Origin: a virus
Lineage: Duplodnaviria; Heunggongvirae; Uroviricota; Caudoviricetes
Reading direction: 5' to 3' (one strand)
IMG/VR virus record: IMGVR_UViG_3300019757_000006
DNA length: 64,000 bases
The notes under the pieces were generated by a model. That model was not told the origin of the DNA. It saw only the letters and a program-made list of their open reading frames with translations, and made no database searches. This document shows positions 5,265 through 56,509 of the stretch, piece after piece (the stretch's first letter is position 1; each line of letters begins with the position of its first letter). The translations under genes and the position numbers were made by a program.

Positions 5265-5272
5265 GATTTAAT

Positions 5273-5773: not shown

Positions 5774-5774
5774 T

Positions 5775-6122: not shown

Positions 6123-6146
6123 AGTTAAAAAATAAAAGGAGAAATA

Positions 6147-6518: not shown

Positions 6519-6521
6519 TAA

Positions 6522-7862
6522 ATGGAAGATAAACCATTAAATCTGGAGAATAAATTAATTAAGATGTATAGCTGGCATCTAAAGGTTCTGGGTGCTTATG
6601 TTCAGAATCCGGATCCAGGTCTATATGGAGTAGAAGATAATATTATTATTAATAGTTCTGATGCAGCCGCTTTATATCCAACGGTTACTGTATTTAGTAA
6701 TATCAGTTCTGAAACTTTATTTGCTAGAGTTTATGATCCAGCCGCGGTAAGTAATCTTGTTAATTTATTGAAGAAAGTATTTGGTATGAAAGCCAAAGGA
6801 GTACCGATAGATACAATCGTATCTCAAGTAATTCCCTCTTTTACTAATGCAGTTGAAACATTATTAAAAGATTATGGTAAACGTAATCAAATTAAAAATA
6901 AAAAAGATGCTTCTGAATTTACTCTAAAATTTTATCCATATGCGTTAGAAAAAATTATTAGATATAATGGGGAACTTGAAGATATTTTCTGTCCAAAAGA
7001 TGATAGAACTTATTATTTATTAAGAAGTTATTTTTTCCCATTAATAGAAACTATTTCCTGGTTGAGTCCACAGAATAAAGGATATAATCAATTAATAGTA
7101 GATTATATTTTTGAACCAGCTTTATTCGATGAGAAGTACGATAATAAAGAACTTTATATATTCGATAATTATCATAATACTAGATTGAATTTTAAAATAG
7201 TAAATAAAGAAACTATTGAGAGGGATTATTTAGAAAAATATCTATTGAATCCTTATGGTTCTTTATTCTATAAACACGATGATAAATTGGCTTTTGAAGT
7301 TGATTTAATTATTCAAGGTTTAGCCGATAGAAGAACTATTAAAAATCAAATGCTTGTTATGGATGCTATTAATGCAAAGATCGATAATAGTCCAACAGTA
7401 AAAGAATTATTTTTAGATACTGACGAAACTATACTTCATTTAACTCGAGAACAAGCTAGCGCTATTCTAGAAGAAATTGAAGATGATCCGGCTATTAGAG
7501 AATATCGTATTAAATCTTTAATATTAGTAGATTTTGAAAATGTAATTTTTGATAATTACGAAGAATTAAAAAGTTATTTTATTAAAAGAAAAGAGCAATT
7601 TGATTCATTGCAAAATGGTATTAAAGTATCGCTGAACTCTGGTTATGGTATTCTAGGAATGCCTACATTTGAATTTTCAGATACTATTGCTGCTAATAGT
7701 ATTACTACTGGTGGTAAAATATTTGGAATTAAAATGTTCCAAGCTGTTTCTGCTTGGGTTATGGAAAGACATGAGGCTAGATTAGATGATTGTGATGATG
7801 AGAATTGGAAGGATGATGATTGGATAGATCTAGAGTTAAAAGATTTATGTGATTATGAATAA
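6522..7862 (+). CDS. hypothetical protein
   Basis: 446-aa ORF with high coding density. No recognisable catalytic motifs. Acidic C-terminus. Confidence 0.55.
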   Translation: MEDKPLNLENKLIKMYSWHLKVLGAYVQNPDPGLYGVEDNIIINSSDAAALYPTVTVFSNISSETLFARVYDPAAVSNLVNLLKKVFGMKAKGVPIDTIVSQVIPSFTNAVETLLKDYGKRNQIKNKKDASEFTLKFYPYALEKIIRYNGELEDIFCPKDDRTYYLLRSYFFPLIETISWLSPQNKGYNQLIVDYIFEPALFDEKYDNKELYIFDNYHNTRLNFKIVNKETIERDYLEKYLLNPYGSLFYKHDDKLAFEVDLIIQGLADRRTIKNQMLVMDAINAKIDNSPTVKELFLDTDETILHLTREQASAILEEIEDDPAIREYRIKSLILVDFENVIFDNYEELKSYFIKRKEQFDSLQNGIKVSLNSGYGILGMPTFEFSDTIAANSITTGGKIFGIKMFQAVSAWVMERHEARLDDCDDENWKDDDWIDLELKDLCDYE

Positions 7863-7879
7863 CTGCAAAAGGATATACT

Positions 7880-8074
7880 ATGGATATAAATAACGAGGAT
7901 AGGGATTTACCTATTCCTCAAACAAAGAAAGTATTTGTATATGGTACTTTAAAAAGCGACTGTTGTAATAATACCGTGATGCAAAATTTAGGAGCTGAGT
8001 TATTATATAAAAGTAATAGGCTAACGGAGAATCAATTAGAACATAAAGAATTTATTTCTGAGTGGATAGAATAA
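7880..8074 (+). CDS. small hypothetical protein
   Basis: 64-aa ORF filling an intergenic gap. Confidence 0.3.
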   Translation: MDINNEDRDLPIPQTKKVFVYGTLKSDCCNNTVMQNLGAELLYKSNRLTENQLEHKEFISEWIE

Positions 8075-8084
8075 AAGGTAAATT

Positions 8085-8501
8085 ATGAAAGATGAATTTG
8101 GAGATAGAGTCCAATTATTAGATATCGCCGAAAAAGCTAGAAGTAATTTATTGAAAGAATTCTATAATGAGGTATTATATGAAGGTTATACTTTCGATGA
8201 GTTAGTTGAGGATGAAGATTTAGATAAAGAAACAATACCTTATTTTTTAGATCATGGAGTAAAAGCTTCCATTTCCAATTATTCTATAACAATAACATGT
8301 AATTATAATGAATATATTTTTCGAAGACATCGTGATACAAATGAGTATCTAAAAATGGAACAGAATAATTGTTTTTTAATAAATAGAAGGGATACTATAG
8401 CCGGATTTAGAAAACTTCTGGAGAAAATGGAAGAAGAAGAAAAACACATTGGACTTATGACCCCAAGAATATTAGAATGGATGTATAATGTTGGTTACTA
8501 A
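8085..8501 (+). CDS. hypothetical protein, tandem paralogue pair member 1
   Basis: RBS aaaaggtaaattATG. The C-terminal half (ITITCNYNEY...EEEEKHIGLMTPRILEWMYNVGY) aligns with the next gene. Confidence 0.5.
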   Translation: MKDEFGDRVQLLDIAEKARSNLLKEFYNEVLYEGYTFDELVEDEDLDKETIPYFLDHGVKASISNYSITITCNYNEYIFRRHRDTNEYLKMEQNNCFLINRRDTIAGFRKLLEKMEEEEKHIGLMTPRILEWMYNVGY

Positions 8502-8910
8502 AGATAGAAAAGGAATAACTCTAAATCCGGATCCAACTCCAGTAGAGTTATTTATAAAAGCCGAAGAATTAAGAAAAGAATTGAAAAAAGATTTTTTTTT
8601 TCAGATACTTCGACAGAGTGTTCCATATGGTAAAGAACATCGAGAACAATTACCCCTTTTATATAAACGTGGGGTAGAAGTAAATATTAGAAATAAACAC
8701 GTGACTATATATACTCAAAATAATGAATTTCAATTTATGAGATTAAATGGGGATATTCGGTTAAATGAAGATGCTTTGAAATTTTCCGTTGATGGATGTA
8801 AAAGTAAATTAGACGTTATGGATAGAATGAGGCGAATAGAAGAAGAATTTAGAGAAATAAATTCATTGATTCCTCAAATTATTCAGTGGATGGAAATGCG
8901 TGGTTACTAA
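8488..8910 (+). CDS. hypothetical protein, tandem paralogue pair member 2
   Basis: C-terminus VTIYTQNNEF...EEEFREINSLIPQIIQWMEMRGY is homologous to 8085..8501. Start overlaps the previous stop. Confidence 0.5.
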   Translation: MLVTKDRKGITLNPDPTPVELFIKAEELRKELKKDFFFQILRQSVPYGKEHREQLPLLYKRGVEVNIRNKHVTIYTQNNEFQFMRLNGDIRLNEDALKFSVDGCKSKLDVMDRMRRIEEEFREINSLIPQIIQWMEMRGY

Positions 8911-8954
8911 GATATTAAAGATATAATCTATGTATTAAATATAAAAGGAGAAAG

Positions 8955-9133
8955 ATGTTATTAAAATTTAAAGCTGTAAGAGGCGAAATTTATTTTAATC
9001 CAGAATGTTCCCAAATAGAATTTTTATCAGATACTGATATAATTATTATTAATGGTGGTGTTCCTCGAAGGTATACTGCTAGTAAAGAGGAAATGAACGT
9101 TCTGAAAAAAAATTTAGGTAAGTTACTATGAAA
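8955..9133 (+). CDS. small hypothetical protein (59 aa, not in the supplied ORF track)
   Basis: Strong RBS ataaaaggagaaagATG. The stop TGA overlaps the ATG of the next gene (cTATGAaa). Confidence 0.3.
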
Positions 9134-9571
9134 ACAATATGTTTAATTTCCTGCGTTAAAGGAAAGAATAATGTTTCAAGTAAAGCAGTTGATTTATATA
9201 AAAGTACTTTATTCTCGGCTCATAAAAATTGGGCTTATAATGTAAGAGGTTTTAAAGAAGAAGATTGTAGAATTTTATCGGCCGAGCATGGTTTAATTCC
9301 AATGGATATTGTTATAGGTCCTTATGAGAAAACCTTGAATAATATGAGTACTCCGGATAAAGGTAAGTGGGCAAGAAAAGTTTATCAGCAATTAAAAGAT
9401 GAATTCGATTTAAAAGAAACAAACTTTGTTATATTAGCTGGAAAAAATTATTATGAAAATTTAGTTCCAGTTTTAAAGAATTTTGAATTACCAGAGAGTC
9501 TTAAAGGTTTACCGATTGGTAAACGAGTTCAGCAATTACATAAAGAAATAACAGAAAGGAAAAATAAATGA
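9128..9571 (+). CDS. hypothetical protein
   Basis: 147-aa ORF translationally coupled on both sides. Confidence 0.5.
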   Translation: MKTICLISCVKGKNNVSSKAVDLYKSTLFSAHKNWAYNVRGFKEEDCRILSAEHGLIPMDIVIGPYEKTLNNMSTPDKGKWARKVYQQLKDEFDLKETNFVILAGKNYYENLVPVLKNFELPESLKGLPIGKRVQQLHKEITERKNK

Positions 9572-10092
9572 TATTAAAAAATAAATTAGATGTTTCGGAA
9601 ATTGAAAGAAATTCAGATATTGTAAGTAGAATGAGTATTGGAGATTATGATTTAATTCAGATTAGTCAAAATCAAAAATTAACCGAAGAAGATATTGAAA
9701 ATGATGTTCCTATTGAAAAGGAAGTAGTTACTTATTCTATTGGAACTACTATGATTAATCTTAGCGAAATACCAAGAACTGGTATTAGTATTGAGGTTAG
9801 AACTGGTAAAGAATTATTAGAAAAACCATTTTTTACAGAAGCATATAATATAATTGAAGATCGAGTTTATTACAATACTCATATTCTTTTAAGAGATAGA
9901 GCCATTAATTATATTTTTGATAATCTAGGAGATGCTACTGAAATGCAATATCTTATTTTATTTATGAAAAGTAATGGATTCTTTAAATCGTTAAATGCTA
10001 AAGAGCAAGAGAATGACAATTTAGTACCAGTAGAAGAATTAATAGATCAAGAAAATGGCTCTGATATTGCGGAGAAACATGATGGAGAATAA
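9568..10092 (+). CDS. hypothetical protein
   Basis: 174-aa ORF whose start overlaps the previous stop (ATGA). Confidence 0.5.
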   Translation: MILKNKLDVSEIERNSDIVSRMSIGDYDLIQISQNQKLTEEDIENDVPIEKEVVTYSIGTTMINLSEIPRTGISIEVRTGKELLEKPFFTEAYNIIEDRVYYNTHILLRDRAINYIFDNLGDATEMQYLILFMKSNGFFKSLNAKEQENDNLVPVEELIDQENGSDIAEKHDGE

Positions 10093-16413: not shown

Positions 16414-17009
16414 TGAATTACTCTAAAGTTAAATTTAATAAATGTATTAGACTTCTTAAACCTATTGTAGATGCATTTTCAAGTACTATTGTTGGAATAG
16501 AAAGAGAGTATGTTATTGAAAGTATTTTTATTACTAAGAATAATCGAATAGGTGTGGTTATTTTAGGTAGTATGGGATTTAGATGTGGTTATATAAGTAT
16601 TGGAGAAAATGATTTATTAGAAGATTATGAATATTATGAAATTGATGTTCATGGTGGTTTAACCTATCAAGGAAAAGATAATATTGATGAAGTTATTAAA
16701 AACAAGTTAACTCCTGAAGAATTTAATTACATTAAAAAAAATATAACTTATATTGGATTTGATTGTGGCCATTATACTGATGGAAATTCTTATGCTGATT
16801 TAATAGAGTACGGAGTTGAAGTTGAACATCAATTTTCTATAGGTGGTCAAGTAAAAACTTTAGACTATGTTAAAAATGAAATTCAGAAAATGGATTCTCA
16901 ATTAAAAAAGACTAATATTAAAGTTAGAAAAAAGTTAGATACTTTAATTCAAACCAGATTAGTATTTGAAAGAGGTCGTTTTAAATTTAAAGGTAAAAAG
17001 AATGGGTAG
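16413..17009 (+). CDS. hypothetical protein
   Basis: 198-aa ORF whose start overlaps the previous stop (TAATG). Confidence 0.5.
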   Translation: MNYSKVKFNKCIRLLKPIVDAFSSTIVGIEREYVIESIFITKNNRIGVVILGSMGFRCGYISIGENDLLEDYEYYEIDVHGGLTYQGKDNIDEVIKNKLTPEEFNYIKKNITYIGFDCGHYTDGNSYADLIEYGVEVEHQFSIGGQVKTLDYVKNEIQKMDSQLKKTNIKVRKKLDTLIQTRLVFERGRFKFKGKKNG

Positions 17010-19089
17010 AGGAAACAGAAGTAGAAACCGAAGAAGAAGAAAAAAAAATAATAATTCTTCTGAAGAAAATACAGAAAATAGAGGTAGTTCTTTTTCTAAA
17101 CAGAGAAAAACTAAAGAGCAAAAAAAACAAGAGAAAATACAAAGAAAGAAGGAAGCGAAAATGGGTAAAAGAAAAAGTAATTTTTTAAGTAATGTGTCAG
17201 ATGCCGTATCAAATGCAATGAGTGTAAATAATTATTATGGTGGTGGTTATGGTTATAATGCGTTTCAGGTAACTAGACCAACTGATGGTGAAGAAAAAAC
17301 AACTTTAAATTTAGCAATCTTTTCACAAAAATTTTTAAATGATATTGCTGCACAATGTGTACCAGTAGCTGGTGGAGCTGAGTTCCAAACTCATTATAGA
17401 TGTTTACAAGTAGTAATTGGTAATGGTCAAGGTAGAGTTGTATTTACAATTCCTACTGTATTCTTTAACTTTCCTCAAACTGTTTCGACAGGTTCTGTTG
17501 ATTTTGATTTAAGAGAAGTAGATACTATTTCAGCTGGATTAAAAGAAAAATCAAATGAACTTGCTATGCAAATTGCAAATGTTTTTCCAAAAGCTTATTT
17601 TGAAGGTATGGGATTTAATGTATCATTTAGAGAAGGTGAAGTTGGAAGTATTCATAGACATCCAGGGGATTTCTCATTCTCGAGTATTGACTTAGATAAA
17701 GATCCTACAAATCCAGGGGTTATTTATAGACAAGGTAATGCAAAAGATGTTATTCAAACGGATTCTGTTTTATATATTCAAGGTGGAAATCATGTTAAGT
17801 TAGTAACTACTCAAACTAGAGTTGTTAATGTAGAAGCAGCTGAGGATGGTGGTGTTGCTGGAACATATGATAAAGCTAAAACTATTGCAATGATTTATAA
17901 AGATTCTGATACTACTCCAGAAATAGATACAACTGCTACGGAAATTGCTTTTGATCAATTTTTTATACCAGATGGAGAAACAGAACAACAAGGTGTTGCA
18001 GAAGTACTTACTCATTATTTAAATAGATTTGATGGTATTTCTCAAGGAGAAGCTGAAGGGTTTATTGAACATGCTGCTAAAGTTATGCAAATTTTAATTT
18101 CAAATAACTATACTGCAATTAACAAGATTGATCCAAATCTTATTAAACCACATTACCATTCTCCAAAAGTTACTTATAGTCGTAATAAAGCAAGTAATAG
18201 TAATACTAAGAGTCATTTCGCAAAAGATATTGGTACTGACTTAGATGTTAAAGATATGATGTTAAATGAAGTATTAGATTTCTTAAATATAGAACCTTCT
18301 AAATCTAAAATTACTGAAATTACTGATGAGGAAGTTAGAACATTATTCTGGAATTGTGCTGGAAATAAAAGTAATTCTGTAACAATATCTTGTTCTGATG
18401 GTACTATTAAATCAGATGTTATTACAAAAACAAGTGTATTAATTAAAGTAACTTTTACTCAAAAATTAGCTAAAGGTACTAGTACTAGTACTAGATATAT
18501 TCAAAAAGGGAATGGTAATGAGTACATTATCGAAGATAAACCTGAAATTACCCCAGAAGTAATTATAGAAGATGATGATGAAAGCAATATTATTCTTGAT
18601 TATAATGATGCTAGTATTGATCTTGATCATATCGAAACTGACGGAATAGATACCGTTCAAAATGATATTCCAGATATTATTGACGCAGATGCTACTAAAG
18701 CTATCCTTGATTCAGAACAAGAAGTAGAATCTATTGATACTATTACAGAAGATGATAAAGAGGAAACTAAAGAAGTTGGTGGTACTCAGGTTCAAGAAGT
18801 TAAAGAAAAAAAACCAGATTTAGATGAGGTTACTATAGATGATATTAAAAAGTTATTTAAGGAATCTTATGGAAAACAATTTACTGAATTGACCGTAGTA
18901 AATCAATTCCAAGTTGATGGTCTTAAGAAAATGTTATTGGTTTTAAAACCATTAGGTACAGAGTATCTAAGAATTAAAACAGAGAATGTAGAAATTTTTG
19001 CTGATGAATTGAATGATAAAGAGTGTTGTATTATTACATTAGAAACAGCTACAAACTCGTTTCCTAAGCCAATCGATTTATCGATTTAA
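17003..19089 (+). CDS. hypothetical protein with poly-basic N-terminus and acidic C-terminal region
   Basis: The ATG at 17003 (MGRGNRSRNRRRRKKNN) has RBS aaaggtaaaaagaATG. I preferred it over the track start at 16966, which would overlap the previous gene. The C-terminus has D/E-rich tracts. Confidence 0.55.
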
Positions 19090-19091
19090 TT

Positions 19092-20144
19092 ATGGATGTG
19101 GCCTTTATAAAGGATCCACATTTAATGTTTGGCTTTCGTAATTTAATTAGAAAGCCAGGTTGGGAAAATGATGTGATTCTAAAATTAGAAACTATTAAAA
19201 ATTTGATGATTGAAAGAGGATGTACTATTTTACTTTTCTCTGGAGATATGTTAGATAGAAGTAAATCTAAAGAATGGTCTTTTAAATTATATTTAAAAGT
19301 TTTAGAAGTACTTACAAAAATCTTTGTGGAAAACGGAATTAATATCTATAGTATTCAGGGTAATCATGATATGTTAGATGGTAATGAATCTGTCGAAGGA
19401 AGTGTATTTGGTAAGTTAGTTGAAGATGGTATTATTCATCATATAACTACTAATCCATTAGTACTTAATCTTCAAGATGAAGCTACTGGAAAACGGGTAG
19501 ATGTTTCTATTCAGGGTTTAGATTATACTGAGGTAAAAGAAAATATTCAATCTGGTATGGAGCGAATAAATTCTAGTACTTTAAATACGGAGATGATAAA
19601 TTGTATGATGACTCATACTAATATTACTCCAAATGAAACTCAAGTATCTGATTTTACGTATAAACATTTATCTGAAACTTATCCAAATATCGATATTCAC
19701 TTTTGTGGGCATTATCATTTAGGTTTTGAACCAGATAAAGTTAATAATACTACATTTATTAATCCTTGGAACTTAACTAGAGTTATAAGAGATTATAATT
19801 CTAGAATGGAGTTACATACTCCAGAAGTAACTTTTATAAATTTTATAAAATATTCAAAAGATGCTGAACCGGAGGAGTTTACTGAGGTAATTCAATTACC
19901 TCATAAATCTTTTTCAGAAGCATTCAGAGAGGAAGTTATAAATTTATTAGAGGAATCAGATAATGGTTTTAAATTCTTTAAAGAGGGAGTAGTTGATTTA
20001 GAAGAATTGCTTCAGAATCAGGAAATGACTGATGAAGAAATGATTTCGGTTTTAATTACTAAAACTCTTGAGGGAGTTCCAGATGAAAGAAAGAGCCTAA
20101 TTAAAAATAAGGTTCTTCAATATCTTGGAGAAGAAAATGTTTAA
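19092..20144 (+). CDS. Mre11/SbcD-like metallophosphoesterase nuclease (T4 gp47-like)
   Basis: Calcineurin-like phosphoesterase motifs appear in order: DPHL (DxH), LFSGDMLDR (GDxxD), IQGNHDM (GNHD), CGHYHLG (GHxH). Confidence 0.7.
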   Translation: MDVAFIKDPHLMFGFRNLIRKPGWENDVILKLETIKNLMIERGCTILLFSGDMLDRSKSKEWSFKLYLKVLEVLTKIFVENGINIYSIQGNHDMLDGNESVEGSVFGKLVEDGIIHHITTNPLVLNLQDEATGKRVDVSIQGLDYTEVKENIQSGMERINSSTLNTEMINCMMTHTNITPNETQVSDFTYKHLSETYPNIDIHFCGHYHLGFEPDKVNNTTFINPWNLTRVIRDYNSRMELHTPEVTFINFIKYSKDAEPEEFTEVIQLPHKSFSEAFREEVINLLEESDNGFKFFKEGVVDLEELLQNQEMTDEEMISVLITKTLEGVPDERKSLIKNKVLQYLGEENV

Positions 20145-20706
20145 TTATTATCCAAGTAAAATAGATACTTATTGGAAATCCGACCCATTAGATAAAAGAA
20201 GATTTTTAGCCAGTTATATGCATTATTTATCTTTAATTAAATTATGTCATAAAGCTCAAGAGAATGGAAAAACTATTGGTTGGGAAATTAAAGAAATATT
20301 AGATTTATCCGCGAAGGATGTTTCTAATTATTATTTTAAACTTAAGTACTTATCGTATTATAAAGTATCAATCTCTCCAAAGATGGTAAAGGATAAAGAA
20401 TCGAAAGAATATTTATTTAATATTAATCTAGAGGGTGATGAGTTAATAGATATAAAGCATAAAGATAACGTGGCTGCATTATATGATAATATATGTGCAG
20501 TTATTGGTGATTATGATTTATATAAAGAGGAAGCTGTTTTAGATATGGGATTACTAGTTCCAGGTAAAAATATGTTCGTTTTAAATAATAGAGACTTAGT
20601 ACAAGTTGAAGAATTTAAAGATAGTCTAGTTAATTTCTTATTAACAGAACCATATACAAAGTTAGAAAAAGGTTCGAAAGTAATCGGATCACTTGTATTT
20701 AAATAA
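20125..20706 (+). CDS. hypothetical protein
   Basis: 193-aa ORF that overlaps the end of the nuclease gene. Confidence 0.5.
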   Translation: MEKKMFNYYPSKIDTYWKSDPLDKRRFLASYMHYLSLIKLCHKAQENGKTIGWEIKEILDLSAKDVSNYYFKLKYLSYYKVSISPKMVKDKESKEYLFNINLEGDELIDIKHKDNVAALYDNICAVIGDYDLYKEEAVLDMGLLVPGKNMFVLNNRDLVQVEEFKDSLVNFLLTEPYTKLEKGSKVIGSLVFK

Positions 20707-27417: not shown

Positions 27418-27900
27418 ATGTTAAAAAAAATTTTAATAGTTATGTTATTAATTAGTGTTGGATGCGCTCATAAGCATTTTCAAATCGATTTTACACAGCC
27501 AGAATATACTACCAATAATAACTTTGTAAAAATTGGTAATGATAATACTGGTCAATGTACTTGGTTTGTGGATGGTAGAGTACAAGAAAAATTAGGTTTT
27601 AAATTAAAGTTTAAAAGACCATATAGTAGACATGCAAAACACTGGATGGAATTGTTGGATTATCAAAAGGGGTTAAAACCTAAACCAAATTCTATTGCAG
27701 TATATGCAAGTGAAAAATATGGGCATGTTGTTTTTGTAGAAGATGTAACTGAAAATTATATTTACTATAGAGAAGCTAATTTTCCACCTAATCACAAAAT
27801 TGATAAACATGATGGTATATTAAGAAAAATGAGTAAAAATAGATTTCCAAATAAAGGACGAGGTCAAGTTCTTATCGGGTATATTTATTTAGAAAATTAA
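27418..27900 (+). CDS. putative lipoprotein with CHAP-like cysteine/histidine peptidase domain
   Basis: Signal peptide plus lipobox MLKKILIVMLLISVGC. GQCTWFVDGR resembles the CHAP catalytic Cys motif, and a downstream YGHVVFVEDV could supply the His. Confidence 0.5.
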   Translation: MLKKILIVMLLISVGCAHKHFQIDFTQPEYTTNNNFVKIGNDNTGQCTWFVDGRVQEKLGFKLKFKRPYSRHAKHWMELLDYQKGLKPKPNSIAVYASEKYGHVVFVEDVTENYIYYREANFPPNHKIDKHDGILRKMSKNRFPNKGRGQVLIGYIYLEN

Positions 27901-28009: not shown

Positions 28010-28282
28010 ATGCCATATATAAAAGAAGAAGATAAAAAGAAATTACAAGATGGAAAATTAATAGAATCAGCAGGAGAACTTAATTATCTATTTACTAATT
28101 TAATTCAAGAATATATTGATGATAATCAAGGATTAAATTATCAAGTAATAAATGATATCGTTGGAGCTTTAGATGGGGCTAAAGCTGAGTTTCAAAGAAG
28201 AATAGTTATTCCTTACGAAGATAAAAAAATTAGAGAAAATGGCGATGCTTATAATGATAATATTTTAAAGCAAGTTGAATAA
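28010..28282 (+). CDS. hypothetical protein
   Basis: RBS aaaaaggaaaaatATG. 90 aa. Confidence 0.45.
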   Translation: MPYIKEEDKKKLQDGKLIESAGELNYLFTNLIQEYIDDNQGLNYQVINDIVGALDGAKAEFQRRIVIPYEDKKIRENGDAYNDNILKQVE

Positions 28283-28290
28283 GGATTCCG

Positions 28291-30249
28291 ATGTTAGAAA
28301 TTGTTCAGGAACATTTAACTGATTTAAAAATTTATAATACTACTTTAGTAAATATAAATTCGGAATATCATGTTCGTTCAAAAGAAAAAGAAATTCTAGA
28401 AAAAAATATTAAAGAATCTTCAGATTCATTAAGTACAATAGAAGAAGAAGTTCTTTTATTAGAAGAAGCTAAAAAATTATTAGAAACTTTAAAGACTTAT
28501 AAATTACAAGAAAAGAAAGATTTTATTTTAAATATTATTAATACTGCTCTTGGAGATATCTTTAATGATGATGTAAAAATAGATATAGAAGCCCAAGAAA
28601 AGAAAACTTCTAAAAGTACTTCTCAAAAATATGATATAGTATTTTATCAGCAAGGTATTGAGATGGCTAGAAATGAAGAACTTCTAGTTACTAATGGTGG
28701 TGGAATAATGCAAGTTATTTCAATGTTATTTAAAATTCTGATTGGATATATTTATAGTAAGAATACTTTCTATATATTTGATGAAAGTTTTAGTCAATTA
28801 TCTGGAGAAAATAGAACTAGATTATCGAAGTTCTTAAAAGATTTTTGTGATAAATTTAAATTTACTTTAGTAGTAGTTTCTCAAGTTCAAGACTTAGATG
28901 AATTCGCCGATGTAGTATATGATGTTGACGGTCATTATAACGATAGAAATATTAGAACATTAAGTATTACTAATAAAATAATTCCAGAAGATCTAGAAGA
29001 TGGAGAAGGTTATTGGGATTTAGACATTACTAATTTTCAAAGTATTGAAAGACAATCTTTTCAATTTAAAGGATATACTATTATTAGAGGTCCTAATAAT
29101 TCTGGGAAAAGTGCCAGTCTTAGAGCCATTAATAGTATTTTATATAATTCATTTGATGTAAAAAAGTTTCCAAGAAATTCTGGAACGAATAGAGCCTTAC
29201 CAGTTAATATTAAATTATCTAAAATAAAAAATGGTACTACAAAAGAAATATCATTAAAGTATCATAATTCCAAAGTATCTTTTGTAATTGAAGGAAATGA
29301 ATATTATGGAAAAAATTTAGCTGGAGATAAATTAAGAGAAGCTGTTGAAGATATAGGTTTTAAATATATTAATCTTAAAGAATTCTATAAGAATTTTAAA
29401 GGGAATTTAAAAGATCAAACAGAAAGAATTGCTAGTACGACACAATACGATTCTTTATTTCTAGTTGGTAATAAAGGAAATGAAACAGAAAAGGTTTTTA
29501 ACTTTTTATTTAATACCGAAAATATTAGTATGGCTATATTTAAAATTAAAGAAGATATGGTTAATTGGAATAAAAATTATAAAGAACTACAAGAAGAAAT
29601 ACTTTCTAAAACAGAAAGGGTTCTTAGTATTACGGATGAATTAGAATTACTCGGAAGTATTTATTATATAATGAATATCCAGGAGTACCTCAATACTAAC
29701 GAAAATATTAATAATATAGATATAGAACTTTTATCCACCGGAAATAAGATAAATAAACGAGATGAATTTATAAATATCTTTCAGAAAATTAAAGATATTC
29801 CGGAGGCATTAGAATTAATAAATAGTAGTACTCAGGATAATTCAAATAACGACGATACTATTATTAATCTAAGTACTCGTCTAGATAAGGTAAATCTAGA
29901 ATTAGAAAAAAGTAAACCATTATTAGAAAAAAGTATGTTTGTGTATAAATTAGAAAATGATTTAGTACGTTTAAAAGATTTTAATAATACTGATAGTATA
30001 ATAAACCCAGAGAATATGATTAAGAAAATTGAATTAATAGATCAGATAGCTAATAAATACACTCATGTAAAATATATTACTGATAGTATTTCTTATAGTA
30101 ATCATGTGCTAGCGGAAGAAGCTCAATTAGATGAAAAGATAAAAGAGATTAATCATAAAGATTTATTACTTAAAGATAAGTACAATATTCATGAATGTAA
30201 TTCCTGTTCGGGACATGGTTATACTCATTATCATAAAAAGGAAAATTAA
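28291..30249 (+). CDS. SbcC/Rad50-like ABC ATPase with apparently circularly permuted domain order and C-terminal CxxC
   Basis: The SbcC N-terminal motif (NFQSIERQSFQFKGYTIIRGPNNSGKSASLRAI, P-loop) sits at aa ~245-290. The C-lobe-like motifs precede it at aa ~125-200: TNGGG (signature-like), FYIFDES (Walker B) and LVVVSQ (H-loop position). Coiled coil follows, and HECNSCSGHGY lies at the extreme C-terminus. Confidence 0.65.
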   Translation: MLEIVQEHLTDLKIYNTTLVNINSEYHVRSKEKEILEKNIKESSDSLSTIEEEVLLLEEAKKLLETLKTYKLQEKKDFILNIINTALGDIFNDDVKIDIEAQEKKTSKSTSQKYDIVFYQQGIEMARNEELLVTNGGGIMQVISMLFKILIGYIYSKNTFYIFDESFSQLSGENRTRLSKFLKDFCDKFKFTLVVVSQVQDLDEFADVVYDVDGHYNDRNIRTLSITNKIIPEDLEDGEGYWDLDITNFQSIERQSFQFKGYTIIRGPNNSGKSASLRAINSILYNSFDVKKFPRNSGTNRALPVNIKLSKIKNGTTKEISLKYHNSKVSFVIEGNEYYGKNLAGDKLREAVEDIGFKYINLKEFYKNFKGNLKDQTERIASTTQYDSLFLVGNKGNETEKVFNFLFNTENISMAIFKIKEDMVNWNKNYKELQEEILSKTERVLSITDELELLGSIYYIMNIQEYLNTNENINNIDIELLSTGNKINKRDEFINIFQKIKDIPEALELINSSTQDNSNNDDTIINLSTRLDKVNLELEKSKPLLEKSMFVYKLENDLVRLKDFNNTDSIINPENMIKKIELIDQIANKYTHVKYITDSISYSNHVLAEEAQLDEKIKEINHKDLLLKDKYNIHECNSCSGHGYTHYHKKEN

Positions 30250-30983: not shown

Positions 30984-31550
30984 ATGGCATTAACGCATGA
31001 TTTTAAAAAAGATAGTTTAGTTGCCCCAGAGGTGCTCAGTATTGATAAAGATAGAAAAGAATTAGTGTCTTTAGAAATTTTAAAGTTTACAGAAGACACC
31101 TCTGAACTTTCGGAAGCAGAAATTAAAGATTTATATGAAAGAGTTACAAAAGAAGAATTTATTAAAGTTGATGATTTATCTCAACCATATGTTCTTAGAT
31201 TAGTAACTAGTACTGAAAAAGAATTAAGAAGTCTTGAACCAGACTTCTTACCATCGGGTGACGATTTTGAAATGGCCGAAACTATTCAAGATACATTAAA
31301 AGAAAATGGTATTAATGTTTACGGAGGTGATTTTAAAACTGAAGATTTAGAATACGCTGGAGAAATTAAACAACAGAAGTTATCCGATGCAATTAAACAA
31401 GAGATGTATAATGGATTAAAAGAATTAAGTGAAAAAACAAGCGCTGATAATTTAAGTATTGCGAAAGTAGATGAAGCCATTGATAATTCAGAAGAAATTG
31501 ATGCCGCTATCGAAGATGCAGAGATTATTGAAATCAACCAGAAGGATTAA
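30984..31550 (+). CDS. hypothetical acidic protein
   Basis: RBS aaaaggaaataaacATG. 188 aa, D/E-rich. Confidence 0.5.
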   Translation: MALTHDFKKDSLVAPEVLSIDKDRKELVSLEILKFTEDTSELSEAEIKDLYERVTKEEFIKVDDLSQPYVLRLVTSTEKELRSLEPDFLPSGDDFEMAETIQDTLKENGINVYGGDFKTEDLEYAGEIKQQKLSDAIKQEMYNGLKELSEKTSADNLSIAKVDEAIDNSEEIDAAIEDAEIIEINQKD

Positions 31551-31553
31551 TAA

Positions 31554-33059
31554 ATGAAATTAATTAGGTCAAAGCTTGCGGATAAACGAGAAAAGAAATT
31601 AACATATGACTATAATTTTATAGAAGAAAAGATACAGCTATTCTTGGAAAAATACCAAGTGGATAAAGAAATGGAAATATTTATCCAGGATCTAATTGAT
31701 AAAGAAATCGATCTCGATAAAGCATATATTAATATTACTGCTAAAAAAATTGATAAAGAGCCTCAGGTTCAGGTTGATTTTTTTAGTAGAATTAAAGTTA
31801 AGTTAGAAGAATTCATTGTCGATTGTATTAAAAAAGAAATTATTTTAGTACAAGCTAATGATGGAGAAGAGAGTGCTGCTATAACAGAAGAGATTTTAAT
31901 GAACACATTAGAAACTATTCCACTTACTATGTTTGAAGATGGTATTCAAAGAACTACTTTAGTTGCTTATCATTATTTCTTAAAAATTCTGCACCAGAAT
32001 ACAGAAGCTTATATGGAAAAAAATAAGATTAAAAAAATTAAAGGTATTAAAAATCCTAATGAAATCTTAGCAAATGAAATATATAATGTTATTGGTAAAG
32101 ATAAAGAAATGATTAGATTTACATTAACTATTAAAAACCTTATTGAACAATGGTTGGTAAAATATACTAGTAAAACTAAAATTGGCGATTTCTATTATGA
32201 TATATTAATGATTACTCCAGAGTATATAGTTGAGAAAATTCTAAAATATTTAATTATGGTTGCCATAAGAAATAAGAATCCTATGACTCTAAGAGCTATC
32301 TTTAGTTCATATATTACTTTAATTCATAAAAATTTATTTAGTTATTATGCTACGAATCTTAGTAAAGTAAAGGTTGGATATTTTAAGCAATTAGAAAATC
32401 TATTTACAGAGAATTTTGATTTACTTCATGATAAAGGCGAGAGTCGAGATCCAAAGAAATTCATTATGGATATTATGATAAAGACTTATCTAATGAAAAA
32501 TAAAAGACATCTAAAAGATGATATGGATTTTTTAAATGATGAATACTATCAACATTTCTTCGAGACTAATTATTTTGATGCTATGAGTTCATATAAATAT
32601 GAAAGTAATATGTCATTACTCGATCATATGTATTTTTATGAAACTGTATATAAATATACAAAGAATAGTTCGGATGCTCATGGAACTAGCAATGAATTAA
32701 ATAATAAATATATCGTTAATTCTGAATTCTTTAAGAAAAGTAATAAAAAGAAAAATCTTTTATATATCCAAGAAAAATTAGGAAAGAAACTATTTTCTCA
32801 TTTCTATAATATTTTTGGAGATAAAGAAAGTGTAATGCAAATTTTAGAAAGTATGTCAAAAGATATAATTAAGAAATTAAATTTTAATTATTATCTAGAT
32901 GAAGATTTAAAAAGTGTTGAATTTAACTTTAATGAATACTTAGATAATATCGATTATTTTATTGATAGAATCGAAAAAGTAATTCTAAGAGATAAAAGTA
33001 TTACTCCAAATATTAATGTAATGGACATTTTAAGTAATCCAAACGACAAGAAGGCTTAG
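31554..33059 (+). CDS. hypothetical protein
   Basis: 501-aa ORF. Last gene of the rightward block. Confidence 0.55.
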   Translation: MKLIRSKLADKREKKLTYDYNFIEEKIQLFLEKYQVDKEMEIFIQDLIDKEIDLDKAYINITAKKIDKEPQVQVDFFSRIKVKLEEFIVDCIKKEIILVQANDGEESAAITEEILMNTLETIPLTMFEDGIQRTTLVAYHYFLKILHQNTEAYMEKNKIKKIKGIKNPNEILANEIYNVIGKDKEMIRFTLTIKNLIEQWLVKYTSKTKIGDFYYDILMITPEYIVEKILKYLIMVAIRNKNPMTLRAIFSSYITLIHKNLFSYYATNLSKVKVGYFKQLENLFTENFDLLHDKGESRDPKKFIMDIMIKTYLMKNKRHLKDDMDFLNDEYYQHFFETNYFDAMSSYKYESNMSLLDHMYFYETVYKYTKNSSDAHGTSNELNNKYIVNSEFFKKSNKKKNLLYIQEKLGKKLFSHFYNIFGDKESVMQILESMSKDIIKKLNFNYYLDEDLKSVEFNFNEYLDNIDYFIDRIEKVILRDKSITPNINVMDILSNPNDKKA

Positions 33060-45576: not shown

Positions 45577-48500
45577 TTATATATCAGCTAATTTATAAAT
45601 AATTGTTCTGTTCTTAATTTCGACATCTGATTTATTACTTCTTATAGGTCTAGCATTAAATCTAATAGTAGTATTTTGCTCTACTCTTACATAGAATTCA
45701 GCACTACCAAAATTTCTAATACCAGCTTTTTCATCATAACCTTTTTCAAGAGAACATATATTAGTCCAAACACCAGTACTAATTCTATCATTAATTAATT
45801 GACCACCATTAATATCAATACCATCAATAAATGCTCCAAATTGAGAACCCTCTTGAACATTATCTGTAGTACTACTATCCATCTTAATTTGATAAACACC
45901 AGGCACTAATAAAAATGTATCTAATTCATACCAAATATTTTGTCCCCATAAATCTAAGTCCCAAATATTTTTATAATAAAATGTAGGTTCTACAATTAAT
46001 CCAATATTACTTTCTAATCTTAAATTAATATCTTGGATATCCGCAGCTCTAGCATCTTCTTCTATCGCTAATCTAACAGTTAATTCATTATCTTTAAAAG
46101 TACTTCTTTCAATTTCTTGATTAATCTTTTCATCTAGAGTTGTACTTGTTTGAGATAAAGTACTCCCTAAAGAATTAAGAGTATTTTCATTAATTGTAAT
46201 TTTAGCCTCTAAACCAGATTCAACTGTATCTATTTTAGCATTTAAAATAGTATCTTGGTTAGTTCTATTAGTCGTTTCTTCAGTAATAATATTATCAAGA
46301 AGTACTAAACTATTTTGATTATCTGATTTAAATTCAGAAACTTCATTATCTAATTCTGTAATAGTTTCAGTTAATACCATATTAGTTTTATTAACAGCAT
46401 CTGTTAAATTAGTAGGAGCATAACCATTTTCATCATTTAATGATTGCACAAAGTTTAATGTTCCATCATTAGCTTCTCTAGTACTAATTTCATCATCTAA
46501 ATTACCTTGAATAATATTATCATTATTAGATCTTTCAGTCGTTTCCTGATTAATAAAAGTATTTAAAGTTTCGATTTCATTAATTCTATTAGTAGTTTCC
46601 GCATCAAGATTGCCTTGAATTTCATTTAAAGAATCATATCTTGTTTGAGATTCAATTAATAAATTAGCGTTTGTAGCATCAATATTTTCCTGCAAGAATG
46701 AATCTCTAGATAAACTAGCTTCCTCGTTTTCCGCTATAGTTAAATCTTGTAAGCTATCGGCAGCTGTTCTATCGATAATTTCTTGAGCAAAACTATCTTC
46801 AATTATAACGCTTCTAGCATTATTAGTACTAACATACGAAGCGAAAGCATCATCATTTTCCTGATCTATATTATTAATTAAATTAACCATTTCAGCAAAA
46901 CTATCTAAGTCAGCAGAACTAGCAGCTAAGATACCATCTATTCTATTTTTCTCTACAGTAACTCTACCAGATAAAATTAAGTTCTCACTTTCTCTTGTTT
47001 GAGTCTCTAGAACTAAAGCAGCTCCAACAGAAGTAAGTTCGGCGTGTAATTCATCATCTTTATTTTCAGAAGCTAATTTATTACCCTCAATTACTGTTCT
47101 AATACTAGCATCTTCGTTAGTACTTCTAGTAATCTCATTGTTTAGGGATAAAGTAACATTATCTATACTATTCTGTCTAGTTGTACTTTCTAATTCAATT
47201 AAATTAGCTAAATTAATTTCTTCATTAGTACTTCTAGTAATTTCATTATTAATCTTAGTATTTAAAATAGTTTCTTCTGCAATCGCTCTTGATTTCTCAT
47301 TTGCGATATCTAATTTTCTAGCTTCGTTTTCTTGAAGTAAAGATAATTCTAAATCATTAATACTATCAGTAATAGCAACATCATGAGCTTCTCTATCTAA
47401 AGTTTCTTGAACAATTTTAGTATTTAAAGCTTCATCTGCTAATTCAGAAGTATCTCTTAAAGCAGTAATCTTATTATCTAAAGCTGTTTCAACTAAAGCA
47501 TTTTGTACTTTGAAGTTATCTAAATCTAACTGAATAGTTCCTTCTGATTCATTAGCTCTTCTAGCTTCTGTATTAATAGCATCAGTTAAGTTTTTAGGAG
47601 TAACTATATTATTACTAATATCTGTTTTATTTAATAAAGAATCAAATACTAAATTACCATCTTTTAATTCTCTTGTGTCCACTTCATTTTGAATAGCTTG
47701 ATTTATTTGAGTATCAGATGCATCTAATCTATCAATTTCCCCTTCTAGGATTAATTTCTCAGCTTGGAAATCAACTTTATCTAATTTTTGATTATCCATA
47801 TTTAACATTTCTGTATTATATGTAACCTTATCAACTTTAGTATCTACTAAAGATCTAATTTGAATAGCTTGAAGATTATTCTCACCATCAATTCTCTGTA
47901 CTTGTTCATTAACATAAGTAAGATCTGCTTTTGTATCGATAAAGTTTTGAATAAAATCATTTAATCTATTTAATATATTAGCCTCTGCTTGGATAGCTCT
48001 AATTTCTTCCGCTACAATTTTAGCTTCATTATTTTCATCAGCTAAAGTACTTCTACCAATTTCATTATCTAATCTAGTATTTAATTCTTGATCTTCTTCA
48101 GTTCTTACTTGAATCTCATCATTCATTTGAATTAAAAATTCAGTTGTATCTAAATTCTTCTCATCTAAATCAGAATTCAATTGAAGCATTCTATTTGATA
48201 ATTCATTAATATCAGTATTTACTTTATTAGTAAGACTTGTTACTACAGCTTCTAATTCTACTTTACTAGCTTTATCAGCAGTAAGTATGGCATCTATACC
48301 ATTAATATAAGTTCTTAAGTCTTGTAACTTAGTTTCTGCAACAGCTACATCCATCTTTGAAGTAGTTAAAACATCATCAGCTGCATCAATATACGCCGTT
48401 AAATTATCAGCTTCTATTTGTAATTCGGCTTTACTAGCTTTTAAATTATCGAGCGATAATATTCTAGCATCAAGACCATTAAACATTTCACTATCTTTTA

Positions 48501-48615
48501 AATCACTATAGTCTTTAGTATCTTGAATTTTAGTATCTGTCGATGCAATTACTTCAGAGGCTTTATTATCTATTTGTAGTCTAGTTTCTGCGCCTAGTTC
48601 GTTTAATAAACTCAT
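45577..48615 (-). CDS. tail fibre protein (long alpha-helical coiled-coil shaft with C-terminal tip domain)
   Basis: 1012 aa, about 850 aa of them low-complexity heptad-like N/T/E/I/L-rich sequence. The C-terminal ~150 aa is a globular domain shared with 44901..45566. It sits within the structural block. Confidence 0.7.
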   Translation of the reverse strand: MSLLNELGAETRLQIDNKASEVIASTDTKIQDTKDYSDLKDSEMFNGLDARILSLDNLKASKAELQIEADNLTAYIDAADDVLTTSKMDVAVAETKLQDLRTYINGIDAILTADKASKVELEAVVTSLTNKVNTDINELSNRMLQLNSDLDEKNLDTTEFLIQMNDEIQVRTEEDQELNTRLDNEIGRSTLADENNEAKIVAEEIRAIQAEANILNRLNDFIQNFIDTKADLTYVNEQVQRIDGENNLQAIQIRSLVDTKVDKVTYNTEMLNMDNQKLDKVDFQAEKLILEGEIDRLDASDTQINQAIQNEVDTRELKDGNLVFDSLLNKTDISNNIVTPKNLTDAINTEARRANESEGTIQLDLDNFKVQNALVETALDNKITALRDTSELADEALNTKIVQETLDREAHDVAITDSINDLELSLLQENEARKLDIANEKSRAIAEETILNTKINNEITRSTNEEINLANLIELESTTRQNSIDNVTLSLNNEITRSTNEDASIRTVIEGNKLASENKDDELHAELTSVGAALVLETQTRESENLILSGRVTVEKNRIDGILAASSADLDSFAEMVNLINNIDQENDDAFASYVSTNNARSVIIEDSFAQEIIDRTAADSLQDLTIAENEEASLSRDSFLQENIDATNANLLIESQTRYDSLNEIQGNLDAETTNRINEIETLNTFINQETTERSNNDNIIQGNLDDEISTREANDGTLNFVQSLNDENGYAPTNLTDAVNKTNMVLTETITELDNEVSEFKSDNQNSLVLLDNIITEETTNRTNQDTILNAKIDTVESGLEAKITINENTLNSLGSTLSQTSTTLDEKINQEIERSTFKDNELTVRLAIEEDARAADIQDINLRLESNIGLIVEPTFYYKNIWDLDLWGQNIWYELDTFLLVPGVYQIKMDSSTTDNVQEGSQFGAFIDGIDINGGQLINDRISTGVWTNICSLEKGYDEKAGIRNFGSAEFYVRVEQNTTIRFNARPIRSNKSDVEIKNRTIIYKLADI

Positions 48616-48985: not shown

Positions 48986-51900
48986 TTATATTACTGCTAT
49001 TCCCGCAGCTCTTAAAAATGCATCGTTAAATGCATCTTCATTCTCTGCAGTCAAGTTTTGTAAATTAGTATTTACTTCATTAATACTTTGTACTAAGTTA
49101 GTTTTGTCTACTGTATTTAAATCAGTTCTTACACCAACATCATCTTGAAGAGTTCCAAGAATTCCATCTAGAGTAATTAAACTATCTTTTAAACTAATAG
49201 CGCTATCAATAAATCTTGTTCCAGAAATATCTAAAGTTCCATCTGTTTCTAATCCAGTACTTAATCTATCTAAGTCAATATTACTTTGTAAGAAATTATC
49301 TTTCTCTTGTAAAGCTGTAATTAAATTTTGTACTAAAATTTTATTCTCTTCATAAGAAGCTAAGTTCGAAGCTATACTATTAGTATTCGCTGTAATTAAA
49401 GCTCTTAATGCAGTTTCTAAATTTTGTACTGTAAGGTTAATTGCCTCGCCTAAATCAATTCTAGCTTGTACTTCTGTACTTAAATTTTGAGTAAGAGTTA
49501 ATAACTCTGCATCATTATCAGTACTTTCAGCTTTTAAAGCATCATCTAATAACTTAATACTATCTTTAATACTTGTTGATGTAGCTGTATAAGCTCTCGT
49601 TGCATCTGCTAAATAAACTCCACCTACTTCTAATCCAGTACTTGAAATAATTTCAGTAATTGTATTAGTAATATCAGTATCATTAAGATTTACATAATCA
49701 ATAAGTTCTTTAATACTATCTAATTCTAAACTAGTATCGGCTAAGATACCATCTACTCTAGCAGTAACATCATTAATCTTAGTTGTTTGATCAGCATCAG
49801 TTAATAATATAGCAGCTATTTGCTCATTAATAATACTATCAGCATTTGCTCTTTCAGTTATCTCATTATTAAGATTAGTCTCTAAAACATCCTCAGCTGT
49901 ACTAGCTCTTTCTGTCTCAACTGCAATCTTTTGATCTATCTGAATATTTAAAGCTGTTCTATAAGCTTCTGTAGCTAATTTGGTACTTGTAATATCAGTT
50001 TCAATATCTTGTATTGAAGTTCTATTATCAGTAACTCTAGTATCTATAGCATCAATTTGAATATCTCTAGCAGCTTCGAGGTTTCTTATTTCAGCTCTAA
50101 TAGCAGTCTCTTCTTGAACAGCTCTATTAGTCTCTGTTGTATATAACCCAGTTGCATATTCTCTAGCTTGTTCTACATCTACAATTAATTCATCAACTCT
50201 TACACCAGCAGTAGTAATTCTAATCTCTTGCTCATCTGTAATAGCTTGGAATTTATCATTTAATAATTGTTCCGCAGCAATACTTCTAGCTTCTTCTTGT
50301 GCAATTCTTTCATCAGCTACTATTCTAACATCTACCATTAATCTATCAAAGAATTCGGCTTCGTTAATTTGAATAGGTATTTCGATTCTACCATCTTGAA
50401 TCATAGAATCAATAGTCGAAACTATTTCAATTTCTAGTACTCCTAGACTTCTAACCATAGAGTTAATTGCATCAGTTGTATTAGTTAAATGGTCTCCATT
50501 GATATCTTTTAACTTATTATCAAATATCATATCTCCATCAAATTGCTTTCTTTCTGCAATTTCTAAATCAAGTTTTGTATTAATACTAGCATCGTTATTA
50601 TCAACAATTTCAGTTAAATCAATAATACTATCTTTAATAACTACTTCCGCAGCTAATCTTTTAATATCATTTGCATTAATTTCTTCTCTAATACTATCTT
50701 CTTGTACTAATCTATTTTGAATTTCTGCATCAAGACCTGTACTTAATTTAGTATCTAAAGAGTTAATTGCATTACCTCTTAATTGTACTTCTAATTGTAG
50801 CTTTTGAGCTAAATCTAAAATACTAGCAACTCTTGCTTGAATTTCATTATCGATATTATTATTTAATAGAGTTCTAACATCATTAATATGTTCTTGTCTA
50901 TTAATTATCTCTGCACTAATTCTAGAATCAACCCCATCTATATGAGCATTAATTAAATTAGTATTCTGATCTAATTCATTTAATAAAGAACTTTGAATTT
51001 CGTTTCTAGTAGTTTCAGCATTAATATTATTAGTATTTACTAAATCCATTAATGAAGTTTCTAATTCATTTAAATTATTAGTCCATGTATCACTTCTTGT
51101 TTCTACCATTGCAGTTAAGTTAGCAACCGATGTAGATACAGTATTTTGTACACAAGCTAAAACATCATTTTCTCTATCAATATTATTTAAGATATCAACA
51201 ATATCTTTAAATTCTGCTAAGTTAATATCAGTTCCCGCTAAAATAGCTTCTGTTTGTTTAATAACATTATCAATTTTAGTATTTAAAATATTATCAGAAA
51301 CACCTAACTCTACTTTAATTCTATCAATTTTACTATCAACTATTCCAATAGCTAAAGCTCTATCCGCAGTTTCTCTTACTATCTTATTAGTAACAACTGT
51401 ATCTCCAGCAATTCTATTTGTAGTTTCATTTGCTAAGTTACTTCTATCAGTTTGGATCTGTAAATCTCTAGTACTAATTTCTTCATTTATTTTTTCAGTA
51501 AGAAGTTGAACATCTAATATTCTTTCTTCTGTTTCTGTACTAATTTTATTATTAGTACTTTCAATAAATGTTAAAAGACTTGTTTCTAAAGTTTCTAAAT
51601 CATTTCTAAGAACATTATCAACCGCACTTAAAGTAGCAACTTCTAATACAATACTATCTTTAATAGTAGTTTGCTCATTACTTAAATCATTAATTAAAGC
51701 AGTTAAACTATTTGTACTAGCATTTAAGGTATTTTGTAAATCAACTTGAACAACTTGAACTTCATCTCTTACTACTTGAACTTGAGATAATCTATCTTGT
51801 ACTTCTGTACTAATTAAAGCATTTAAAGTACTAATATTATTAGCTCGTGCAATAGTTTCATTCATAATTAAACTATTAATTACTGAATTCTGAGATAATC

Positions 51901-56472: not shown

Positions 56473-56509
56473 ATAGCTAATAGCTAGCTCACTATAGCCA
56501 GCTATTTAG
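56473..56509 (-). repeat. AGCTA-rich dispersed repeat, copy D (in the 68-bp region upstream of the giant fibre gene)
   Basis: aatagctaatagctagctcactatagccagctatttag. Its reverse complement matches copy B. It overlaps the stop of 56506..58983. Confidence 0.5.

Follow-up and report, generated by a model that had tools for sequence, protein, structure and literature searches.

A permuted Rad50/SbcC-like ATPase

A 64,000-nucleotide stretch of DNA from a virus of the Caudoviricetes (IMG/VR record IMGVR_UViG_3300019757_000006), hereafter referred to in its entirety as the window, was found to encode a Rad50/SbcC-like ABC ATPase in which the two lobes of the ATPase head occur in reversed order along the chain. 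The open reading frame (ORF; 28291..30249, plus strand) begins with an ATG at 28291, with AAGGA 6 nt upstream, includes its stop codon at 30249, and translates to 652 amino acids (aa). The swapped lobe order is confirmed far beyond chance by the comparisons below, and the probability that this ATPase is the phage's equivalent of Rad50/SbcC is estimated at roughly 75%. To our knowledge, Rad50, SbcC, and SMC proteins are all described as one fold-back chain, in which the N- and C-terminal lobes come together and the coiled coil forms an unbroken hairpin with a hook or hinge at its tip. The Rad50 chain order of N-lobe, ascending coil, hook, descending coil, and C-lobe was not found in the window ATPase, which instead runs from the descending coil through the C-lobe, linker, and N-lobe to the ascending coil and CxxC. 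The features of the gene are as follows.

28291..30249, plus strand: circularly permuted Rad50/SbcC-like ABC ATPase, whole gene (ORF, AAGGA, full-length homologs)
28345..28563, plus strand: N-terminal long helix, aa 19-91 (aligns with the N-terminal helix of stand-alone C-halves)
28564..28980, plus strand: ABC C-lobe with signature, Walker B, D-loop, and H-loop region, aa 92-230
28690..28704, plus strand: signature equivalent T-N-G-G-G, aa 134-138; family consensus S-N-G-G-G (conservation)
28768..28785, plus strand: Walker B FYIFDE with catalytic Glu, aa 160-165 (aligned to Rad50 Walker B 'LILDE')
28879..28884, plus strand: S-Q at the H-loop position, aa 197-198 (aligned to Rad50 'VSH')
28981..29010, plus strand: short acidic linker, aa 231-240 (poorly conserved; between strands 222-230 and 241-249)
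29011..29505, plus strand: ABC N-lobe, aa 241-405 (AAA_23, SMC_N, Rad50 alignment, split N-half match)
29089..29112, plus strand: Walker A (P-loop) GPNNSGKS, aa 267-274 (conservation)
29416..29418, plus strand: candidate Q-loop glutamine Q376 (conservation; putative position)
29518..30180, plus strand: ascending coiled-coil strand, aa 410-630, with a predicted break at 567-572
30196..30219, plus strand: terminal CxxCxGxG zinc-knuckle/hook motif C-N-S-C-S-G-H-G, aa 636-643

The reversed order had been proposed in a preliminary description of this DNA from peptides all of which are present in the translation: LVTNGGGIMQVISMLFKIL (aa 132-150), FYIFDESFSQLSGEN (aa 160-174), and TLVVVSQ (aa 192-198) as the C-lobe, the N-lobe opening LDITNFQSIERQSFQFKGYTIIRGPNNSGKSASLRAINSILYN at aa 243-285, and the C-terminal HECNSCSGHGYTHYH at aa 634-648. 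Three independent alignments run out of order in the same manner. The Pfam profile SMC_N matched in two stretches, with aa 244-284 on profile positions 5-48 and aa 28-212 on positions 91-211 of 220. The best PDB match of a 59-member family profile was Pyrococcus furiosus Rad50 (3qku), where profile positions 232-286 fell on Rad50 5-60 and positions 150-215 on Rad50 293-357; this alignment placed the Walker B DE over DE and 'VVSQ' over 'LVSH', bearing out the earlier reading of a Gln at the H-loop position. Finally, positions 166-339 of the PADLOC model mad3 aligned to aa 31-214, while the N-lobe models begin at aa 244. AAA_23 matched aa 244-442 and passed its gathering score (E 1.2e-6, 29.8 bits against 27). 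A C-lobe with signature, Walker B, D-loop, and H-loop, as in the C-terminal lobe of Rad50/SbcC/gp46, is present, and the Walker A/Q-loop lobe is also present, but at aa 241-405 and not at the N-terminus. Separate hidden Markov models (HMMs) of the C-lobe, N-lobe, and coiled-coil tail matched a single ORF in the same order in 14 of 14 fetched loci; the arrangement recurs in related phages.

Conservation of the motifs was counted over 59 homologs (34-63% identity). The signature residue N135 was retained in 58 of 59 and G136-G138 in all; D164 and E165 of Walker B, S171 at the D-loop Asp position, and G267, N269, G272, K273, and S274 of Walker A were each invariant (59/59). At the H-loop position, S197 was present in 57/59, and residue 198 was Gln in 52 and His in seven. 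Q376 was likewise found in all homologs, 103 residues past the Walker A lysine, a spacing that we take to be about the same as in P. furiosus Rad50. At the C-terminus, C636, C639, and G643 were invariant, G641 was present in 55/59, and the terminal CxxC was always located 7-15 aa from the end of the chain across the family. CxxCxGxG corresponds to a single repeat of the DnaJ zinc finger.

Predicted structure of head and arm

The full-length AlphaFold2 (AF2) model had a predicted local distance difference test (pLDDT) value of 78.4, with 85-93 in the head. Its elements in order are a helix (19-91), two beta/alpha domains (95-230 and 241-405), a helix (410-566), a loop, a second helix (573-630), and a small hairpin carrying the Cys pair; the region of the linker was modeled at pLDDT 84-93. 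The preliminary description had named an unrelated fold for aa 120-200 as a result that would overturn it. A separate C-lobe model of aa 55-240 (pLDDT 87.6) instead matched only SMC and Rad50 heads in a fold search, with the following scores.

3kta_B, presumably the C-terminal half-chain of the P. furiosus SMC head: 11.0 (145/171 residues aligned)
3qku_A, Rad50: 10.2
6qpw_C and 6yuf_A, cohesin Smc3 and Smc1 heads: about 10
3qf7_A, Thermotoga maritima Rad50, 21% identity: 8.5
3qkr_B, second chain of a Rad50 head made of two chains, with the N-lobe on chain A: 7.8
6s6v_C, Escherichia coli SbcC: 7.6

A Foldseek search against BFVD returned no viral protein over the whole arrangement (TMq <= 0.26), the best matches being proteins of 193-219 aa.

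Across the family the length of the descending strand (aa 19-91, ~73 aa) does not vary, and that of the ascending strand with its tail is between 202 and 322 aa. In the window ATPase the coiled coil following the N-lobe spans ~220 aa (410-630) in the AF2 model, not the ~350 aa estimated initially. Residues 19-91 and 410-490 were modeled with confidence (pLDDT 84-95), a profile that fits their predicted pairing as the base of the arm. In the model the distal arm turns at 567-572 and runs back as a helix (573-630), at pLDDT 50-73. Helix-breaking residues recur ~85-97 aa past the head across the family, and the distance from the second helix-breaker to the CxxC grows with arm length (44, 63-67, and ~101-116 aa). 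This recurrence in sequence weakly favors a distal hairpin that would return the zinc knuckle to a mid-arm junction near the N-terminus of the chain. Alternatively, the distal ascending strands of two protomers may run parallel as a coiled coil held at its tip by zinc.

Breadth of the family and integrity of the gene

In a large protein database at least 189 clusters (90% identity) were related to the ATPase at E <= 0.001, and among the 120 clusters listed nearly all were 550-750 aa and covered most of the query. The permuted architecture is common to ~49 clusters at 50% identity; because the contigs carrying them reach 295 kb, the permuted family is a lineage of uncultured jumbo phages. When a profile of the C-lobe only was scored against 1.84 billion representatives, 48 proteins matched at E <= 1e-30, all of 577-756 aa except for a few apparent fragments and with the match starting within the first 34 residues. 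Public names of family members are 'EcfA2', 'RecN', or none. No match among GenBank phages was found by tblastn for the ATPase, for a conserved ORF of 401 aa, or for either half of the split system at locus L015 (described below), and megablast of 24 kb of the window yielded only a 242-bp match at chance level.

The two halves of the protein match different stand-alone PHROG families, as would be seen if adjacent C-half and N-half genes had been joined by a sequencing or assembly error. This explanation is effectively refuted. The identical 652-aa protein is found on a 224,699-bp contig, in JGI and ENA sources, and, with the same neighbors, in a Logan assembly made independently; over 100 homologs (34-63% identity) carry this junction intact within a single ORF; and the linker is among the confidently modeled parts of the chain. 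No in-frame start codon was found near the lobe junction of the 652-aa ORF, and fusion of the lobes is therefore obligate.

Split two-gene relatives and origin of the permutation

Beyond the permuted family, C-lobe profile scores drop sharply to a larger set of stand-alone proteins matched end to end. These made up ~100 of the best 150 C-lobe matches (106-265 aa, mostly 187-235 aa), and 1602 matches were obtained overall at E <= 1e-3; no long protein of canonical order was present among the best 150. The PHROG families agree with this division, as phrog_15167 ('ATPase', 211 positions) matched aa 16-212 (E 6e-16) and two 'exonuclease' families, phrog_1499 (E 1.6e-7) and phrog_16465 (E 2.8e-5), matched aa 245-630. 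By sequence comparison, the nearest relatives of the window ATPase are thus split phage Rad50 genes cut right after the zinc hook, each system consisting of a C-half (phrog_15167, ~200 aa) and an N-half (phrog_1499/phrog_16465, ~350-440 aa). The split form is known only from PHROG and UniProt names.

Representative loci illustrate the split layout. At L019 the 404-aa N-half has a Rad50-type opening (…LHNFQRI…GASDLGKSS…), a coiled coil of ~230 aa, and a CPTCGS motif located 17 residues before its end. A Mre11-like gene and a PD-(D/E)XK gene come next, and a separate 229-aa C-half is encoded several genes downstream. L015 shares this layout, and its N-half ends in …CGNCGS…. L022 shows a compact canonical order in which the N-half ends exactly in '…DTCPFCGK*' and is followed by two small ORFs and a 235-aa C-half, which has an S-Q H-loop and whose end overlaps the start of the Mre11-like gene. 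The N-lobe HMM matched a split N-half at E 1.5e-16. BLASTP aligned window aa 34-211 with L019 C-half 21-189 (27% identity, E 4e-23) and window aa 238-480 with L019 N-half 4-234 (28% identity, E 3e-15). These matches are co-linear, and the split proteins therefore begin and end where the window protein has its junction and its termini, in keeping with the earlier suggestion of a chain as if cut at the hook with its old termini fused. A narrower C-half alignment gave four related loci, and the closest stand-alone C-halves (P0156 and P0158) are on ~1-kb contigs, too short for gene order.

Between the N-half and C-half of L022 (8051..11345; the same in L023) are an 87-aa coiled-coil-looking ORF (9131..9394) and a 130-aa ORF. 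Together, the 87-aa ORF and the C-half helix (~95 aa) approximate the N-half coiled coil in length (~180 aa), and the L022-type system may be a three-piece Rad50.

The window ATPase and the split systems share a short helix before the C-lobe, an xGGG signature, 'FDESxSxxS', an S-Q or S-H H-loop (the region reads 'ISHQ' or 'LSQD' in split relatives), an N-half ending at a CxxC (CPFCGK, CPTCGS, or CGNCGS in split relatives), and linkage to a Mre11-like gene. They differ in that the split systems comprise two genes, either several genes apart or in canonical order, whereas the window ATPase is one chain of C-half then N-half, and in that the CxxC of the split relatives is a more hook-like CPxCG compared with CxxCxGxG in the window.

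Most simply, the proposed direction of evolution runs from a Rad50 severed after its hook to a later fusion of the halves in the order C-half then N-half. In the split loci examined the C-half gene was not directly upstream of the N-half gene, and the fusion route therefore also needs a rearrangement. That point lends some weight to a different history, in which tandem duplication of a canonical Rad50 was followed by loss of the outer parts and the split forms arose by later fission of a permuted or canonical gene; duplication then deletion is the textbook route to circular permutation. We consider this history unlikely, as the split forms are far more common and diverse than the permuted ones (the 1602 C-lobe matches against ~49 clusters), occur in canonical order with the cut exactly after the hook, and have chain ends coinciding with those of the permuted protein, while canonical-order long proteins are missing from the best 150 C-lobe relatives.

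Linkage to Mre11 and probable function

An Mre11/SbcD-like nuclease gene is present in the window on the same strand as the ATPase.

19092..20144, plus strand: Mre11/SbcD-like nuclease, putative partner (Metallophos; PDB profile matches), 8.1 kb upstream of the ATPase

All 13 PDB matches of the nuclease profile were Mre11, SbcD, or Rad32 (best E 2.3e-6), and the window nuclease is 39% identical (E 1e-76) to the nuclease abutting the ATPase at L002. Linkage was tallied over 12 distinct loci of the permuted family. In L002, L004, and L011 the Mre11-like gene was located 254-311 bp upstream in an overlapping gene string. In L014, L005, L006, and the window it lay on the same strand at 4.4-8.1 kb upstream; L009, with only 3.5 kb of upstream sequence, was uninformative. 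The operonic association with a Mre11/SbcD nuclease that is expected of the Rad50 family was thus found, as direct adjacency, in three loci. The initial observation that the ATPase is not next to the Mre11-like gene holds for the window, but the distance is particular to this lineage, as orthologs of the nuclease adjoin the ATPase in other members. Among split systems, five of five distinct loci had a Mre11-like gene within ~6 kb. SbcC and SbcD have been reported to be practically universal in jumbo phages (PMC7824862).

Several ORFs near the nuclease were considered in this context. A conserved 104-106-aa ORF lies between the Mre11-like gene and the ATPase (L002 9681..10001, L004 9694..10011, and L011 9594..9908), with starts and stops overlapping its neighbors and no counterpart in the window. 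It does not resemble coiled coil and was rejected as a missing distal descending helix; it is related neither to DUF6899 nor to window ORF 20125..20706. At L005 the Mre11-like gene and the ATPase are separated by two inserted genes, rIIB (PF26926) and one encoding a 990-aa HATPase_c protein that may be rIIA-like (4647..9982). Directly upstream of the window nuclease, ORF 16966..19089 (plus strand, 707 aa) has a very basic low-complexity N-terminus and no PDB match. Homologs are found upstream of the nuclease in L002, L004, L006, L011, and L013, making it part of a conserved block. It was discarded as the 'real' SbcC, having no P-loop and no Pfam or PHROG match and carrying a JAMM-like HxHPx6SxxD motif instead. 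Of the other window ORFs of at least 100 aa, only the ClpB-like gene has a clear Walker A; an RCC1-repeat protein (62720..63991, minus strand) gave one loose Walker A regular-expression match and is not ABC-like.

The window ATPase is most likely the partner of the phage's Mre11-like nuclease, with which it would form a physical complex. The chain begins in the coiled-coil arm, where aa 19-91 are read as its proximal descending strand, and runs on into the C-lobe with signature SNGGG, Walker B DE, and H-loop S-Q. A ~10-residue linker then joins the C-lobe straight to the N-lobe, and with it the old C-terminus of the head to its old N-terminus, and the chain exits the head as the ascending strand (aa 410-630) to end in the CxxCxGxG zinc knuckle. 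The head is the bipartite ATPase of Rad50, covalently closed, with both chain termini in the arm. Two heads would presumably sandwich two ATPs, the Cys pair could share zinc with a second protomer, and the ATPase together with the nuclease would process DNA ends for recombination-dependent replication. ATP hydrolysis, dimerization, zinc binding, and the complex with Mre11 are what we infer from knowledge of the family.

A number of observations weigh against this assignment. Sequence similarity to Rad50/SbcC is weak, with SMC_N at 29.8 bits below its cut-off of 40, a best PDB E-value of only 2.6e-5, and no match of the whole ATPase in NCBIfam (sbcC/rad50), and the N-lobe is by sequence about equally like OLD/Gabija-type ATPases (PADLOC). 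With Ser in place of the D-loop Asp and, in most members, Gln in place of the H-loop His, catalytic details may differ from Rad50. The descending strand (~73 aa) is far shorter than the ascending strand (~220 aa), and the folded-back distal arm of the AF2 monomer would take the CxxC away from the apex. In the window no Mre11-like gene occurs within 4 kb of the ATPase, and in L007, L008, L012, and L013 none occurs within 10 kb upstream. Furthermore, the window represents 64 kb of a ~225-kb genome, and a second, canonical SbcC elsewhere is possible.

Some of these observations would suit a permuted SMC-like ATPase that is not a Mre11 partner and acts instead in genome organization or segregation, counter-defense, or superinfection exclusion, as in OLD/Gabija/Lamassu/MADS-type systems. 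Local PADLOC matches to mad3 (E 6e-13), Old (1e-10), NsnB, HEC-01A, and GajA point in this direction, as do the distance or lack of a nuclease in the window and the four loci above and the position of the ATPase in a conserved block with 188-aa and ~500-aa proteins of no known family. However, no PADLOC model matched end to end, the matches being generic N-lobe or C-lobe pieces, and judged by these profiles the ATPase is not a member of any PADLOC defense family. The ATPase has neither a fused nor a neighboring TOPRIM, HNH, or other effector domain, and no methylase partner is found beside it. The overlapping string of Mre11, 105-aa, and ATPase genes in three lineages, the Mre11 linkage of the split relatives, and the surrounding replication/recombination module (topoisomerase II, PolB-like, and thymidylate synthase) also argue for the nuclease partnership, and a role outside it is regarded as improbable, slightly more so than the duplication history discussed above.

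Comparison with known systems

The window ATPase resembles Rad50, SbcC, and T4 gp46 in its bipartite ABC head with Walker A, Q-loop, signature, Walker B, and H-loop, its long coiled-coil arm extending from the head, its CxxC zinc motif, and its linkage to a Mre11/SbcD-type nuclease. Rad50 is the top PDB match by sequence, and Rad50 and SMC heads are the top matches by fold. It differs from Rad50 in the reversed lobes joined by the ~10-residue linker with both termini in the arm, in a CxxC(xGxG) 13 residues from the C-terminus where that of Rad50 is mid-chain, in strands of ~73 aa (descending) and ~220 aa (ascending), and in the family signature SNGGG, D-loop Ser for Asp, and mostly Gln for His in the H-loop. 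OLD, Gabija GajA, MADS mad3, Lamassu LmuB, and Septu PtuA are defense-type ABC ATPases with short coiled coils; they have the canonical lobe order, in contrast to the window ATPase, and carry effector nucleases of other types (TOPRIM and others), fused or adjacent, which are lacking at the window ATPase.

No description of a permuted or hook-split Rad50, SbcC, or SMC protein was found in the full-text literature, within a search of incomplete coverage. The architecture is solidly established and would surprise specialists on Rad50 and SMC proteins; the function would be the expected one. The reversed-order family and the relatives cut exactly after the hook represent natural topological mutants. 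They bear on the role of arm continuity and hook position in ATP-driven clamping of DNA ends, on how the arm transmits conformational change, and on where DNA can enter. One tentative proposal, which we hold to be possible and rather short of probable, is that in this family and its split two-gene, perhaps three-gene, relatives a Mre11-partner Rad50 works without a covalently continuous hairpin, its head closed by a linker, both chain ends in the arm, and its knuckle at a chain terminus. If true, either position of the knuckle, at the tip or at mid-arm, would mean that an SMC-class arm can be built, and perhaps opened, in a way not described before. The permuted chain or the split halves are also possible ready-made designs for Rad50 heads without artificial linkers. 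As family members are annotated 'EcfA2', 'RecN', or hypothetical, phage surveys that score the presence of SbcCD will miss them.

Genomic context

The window is AT-rich (~28% GC) and strand-coherent, and no tRNA genes were found in its 64 kb. Its recognizable genes, encoding thymidylate synthase, a PolB-like ORF, a two-subunit type II topoisomerase, the Mre11-like phosphoesterase, and the ClpB-like ATPase, are a phage replication and recombination module. A 90-aa DUF6899 protein (E 5e-25; 28010..28282, plus strand) is encoded 8 nt upstream of the ATPase; its 141-aa homolog in L006 overlaps the ATPase start, and DUF6899 is absent from the lineages with an adjacent Mre11. Downstream of the ATPase are genes for an acidic 188-aa protein (30984..31550, plus strand) and a ~500-aa protein (31554..33059, plus strand), both of which follow the ATPase in 7-8 distinct family loci, with conservation of the ~500-aa protein at E 1e-144 to 1e-286. 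Neither matched Pfam, PHROG, or PDB, and both may be further components of the ATPase module.

Within the replication/recombination block, a 160-aa CHAP-domain protein (27418..27900, plus strand) has a lipoprotein-like signal (…LLISVGC…). The 446-aa ORF 6522..7862 (plus strand) matches DNA_pol_B only over a short piece (aa 356-400) and may be a split or divergent polymerase. A minus-strand block contains three very large ORFs with no Pfam match, 48986..56437 (2483 aa), 45577..48615 (1012 aa), and 56506..58983 (825 aa), which may encode virion or other large proteins of an undescribed phage lineage.

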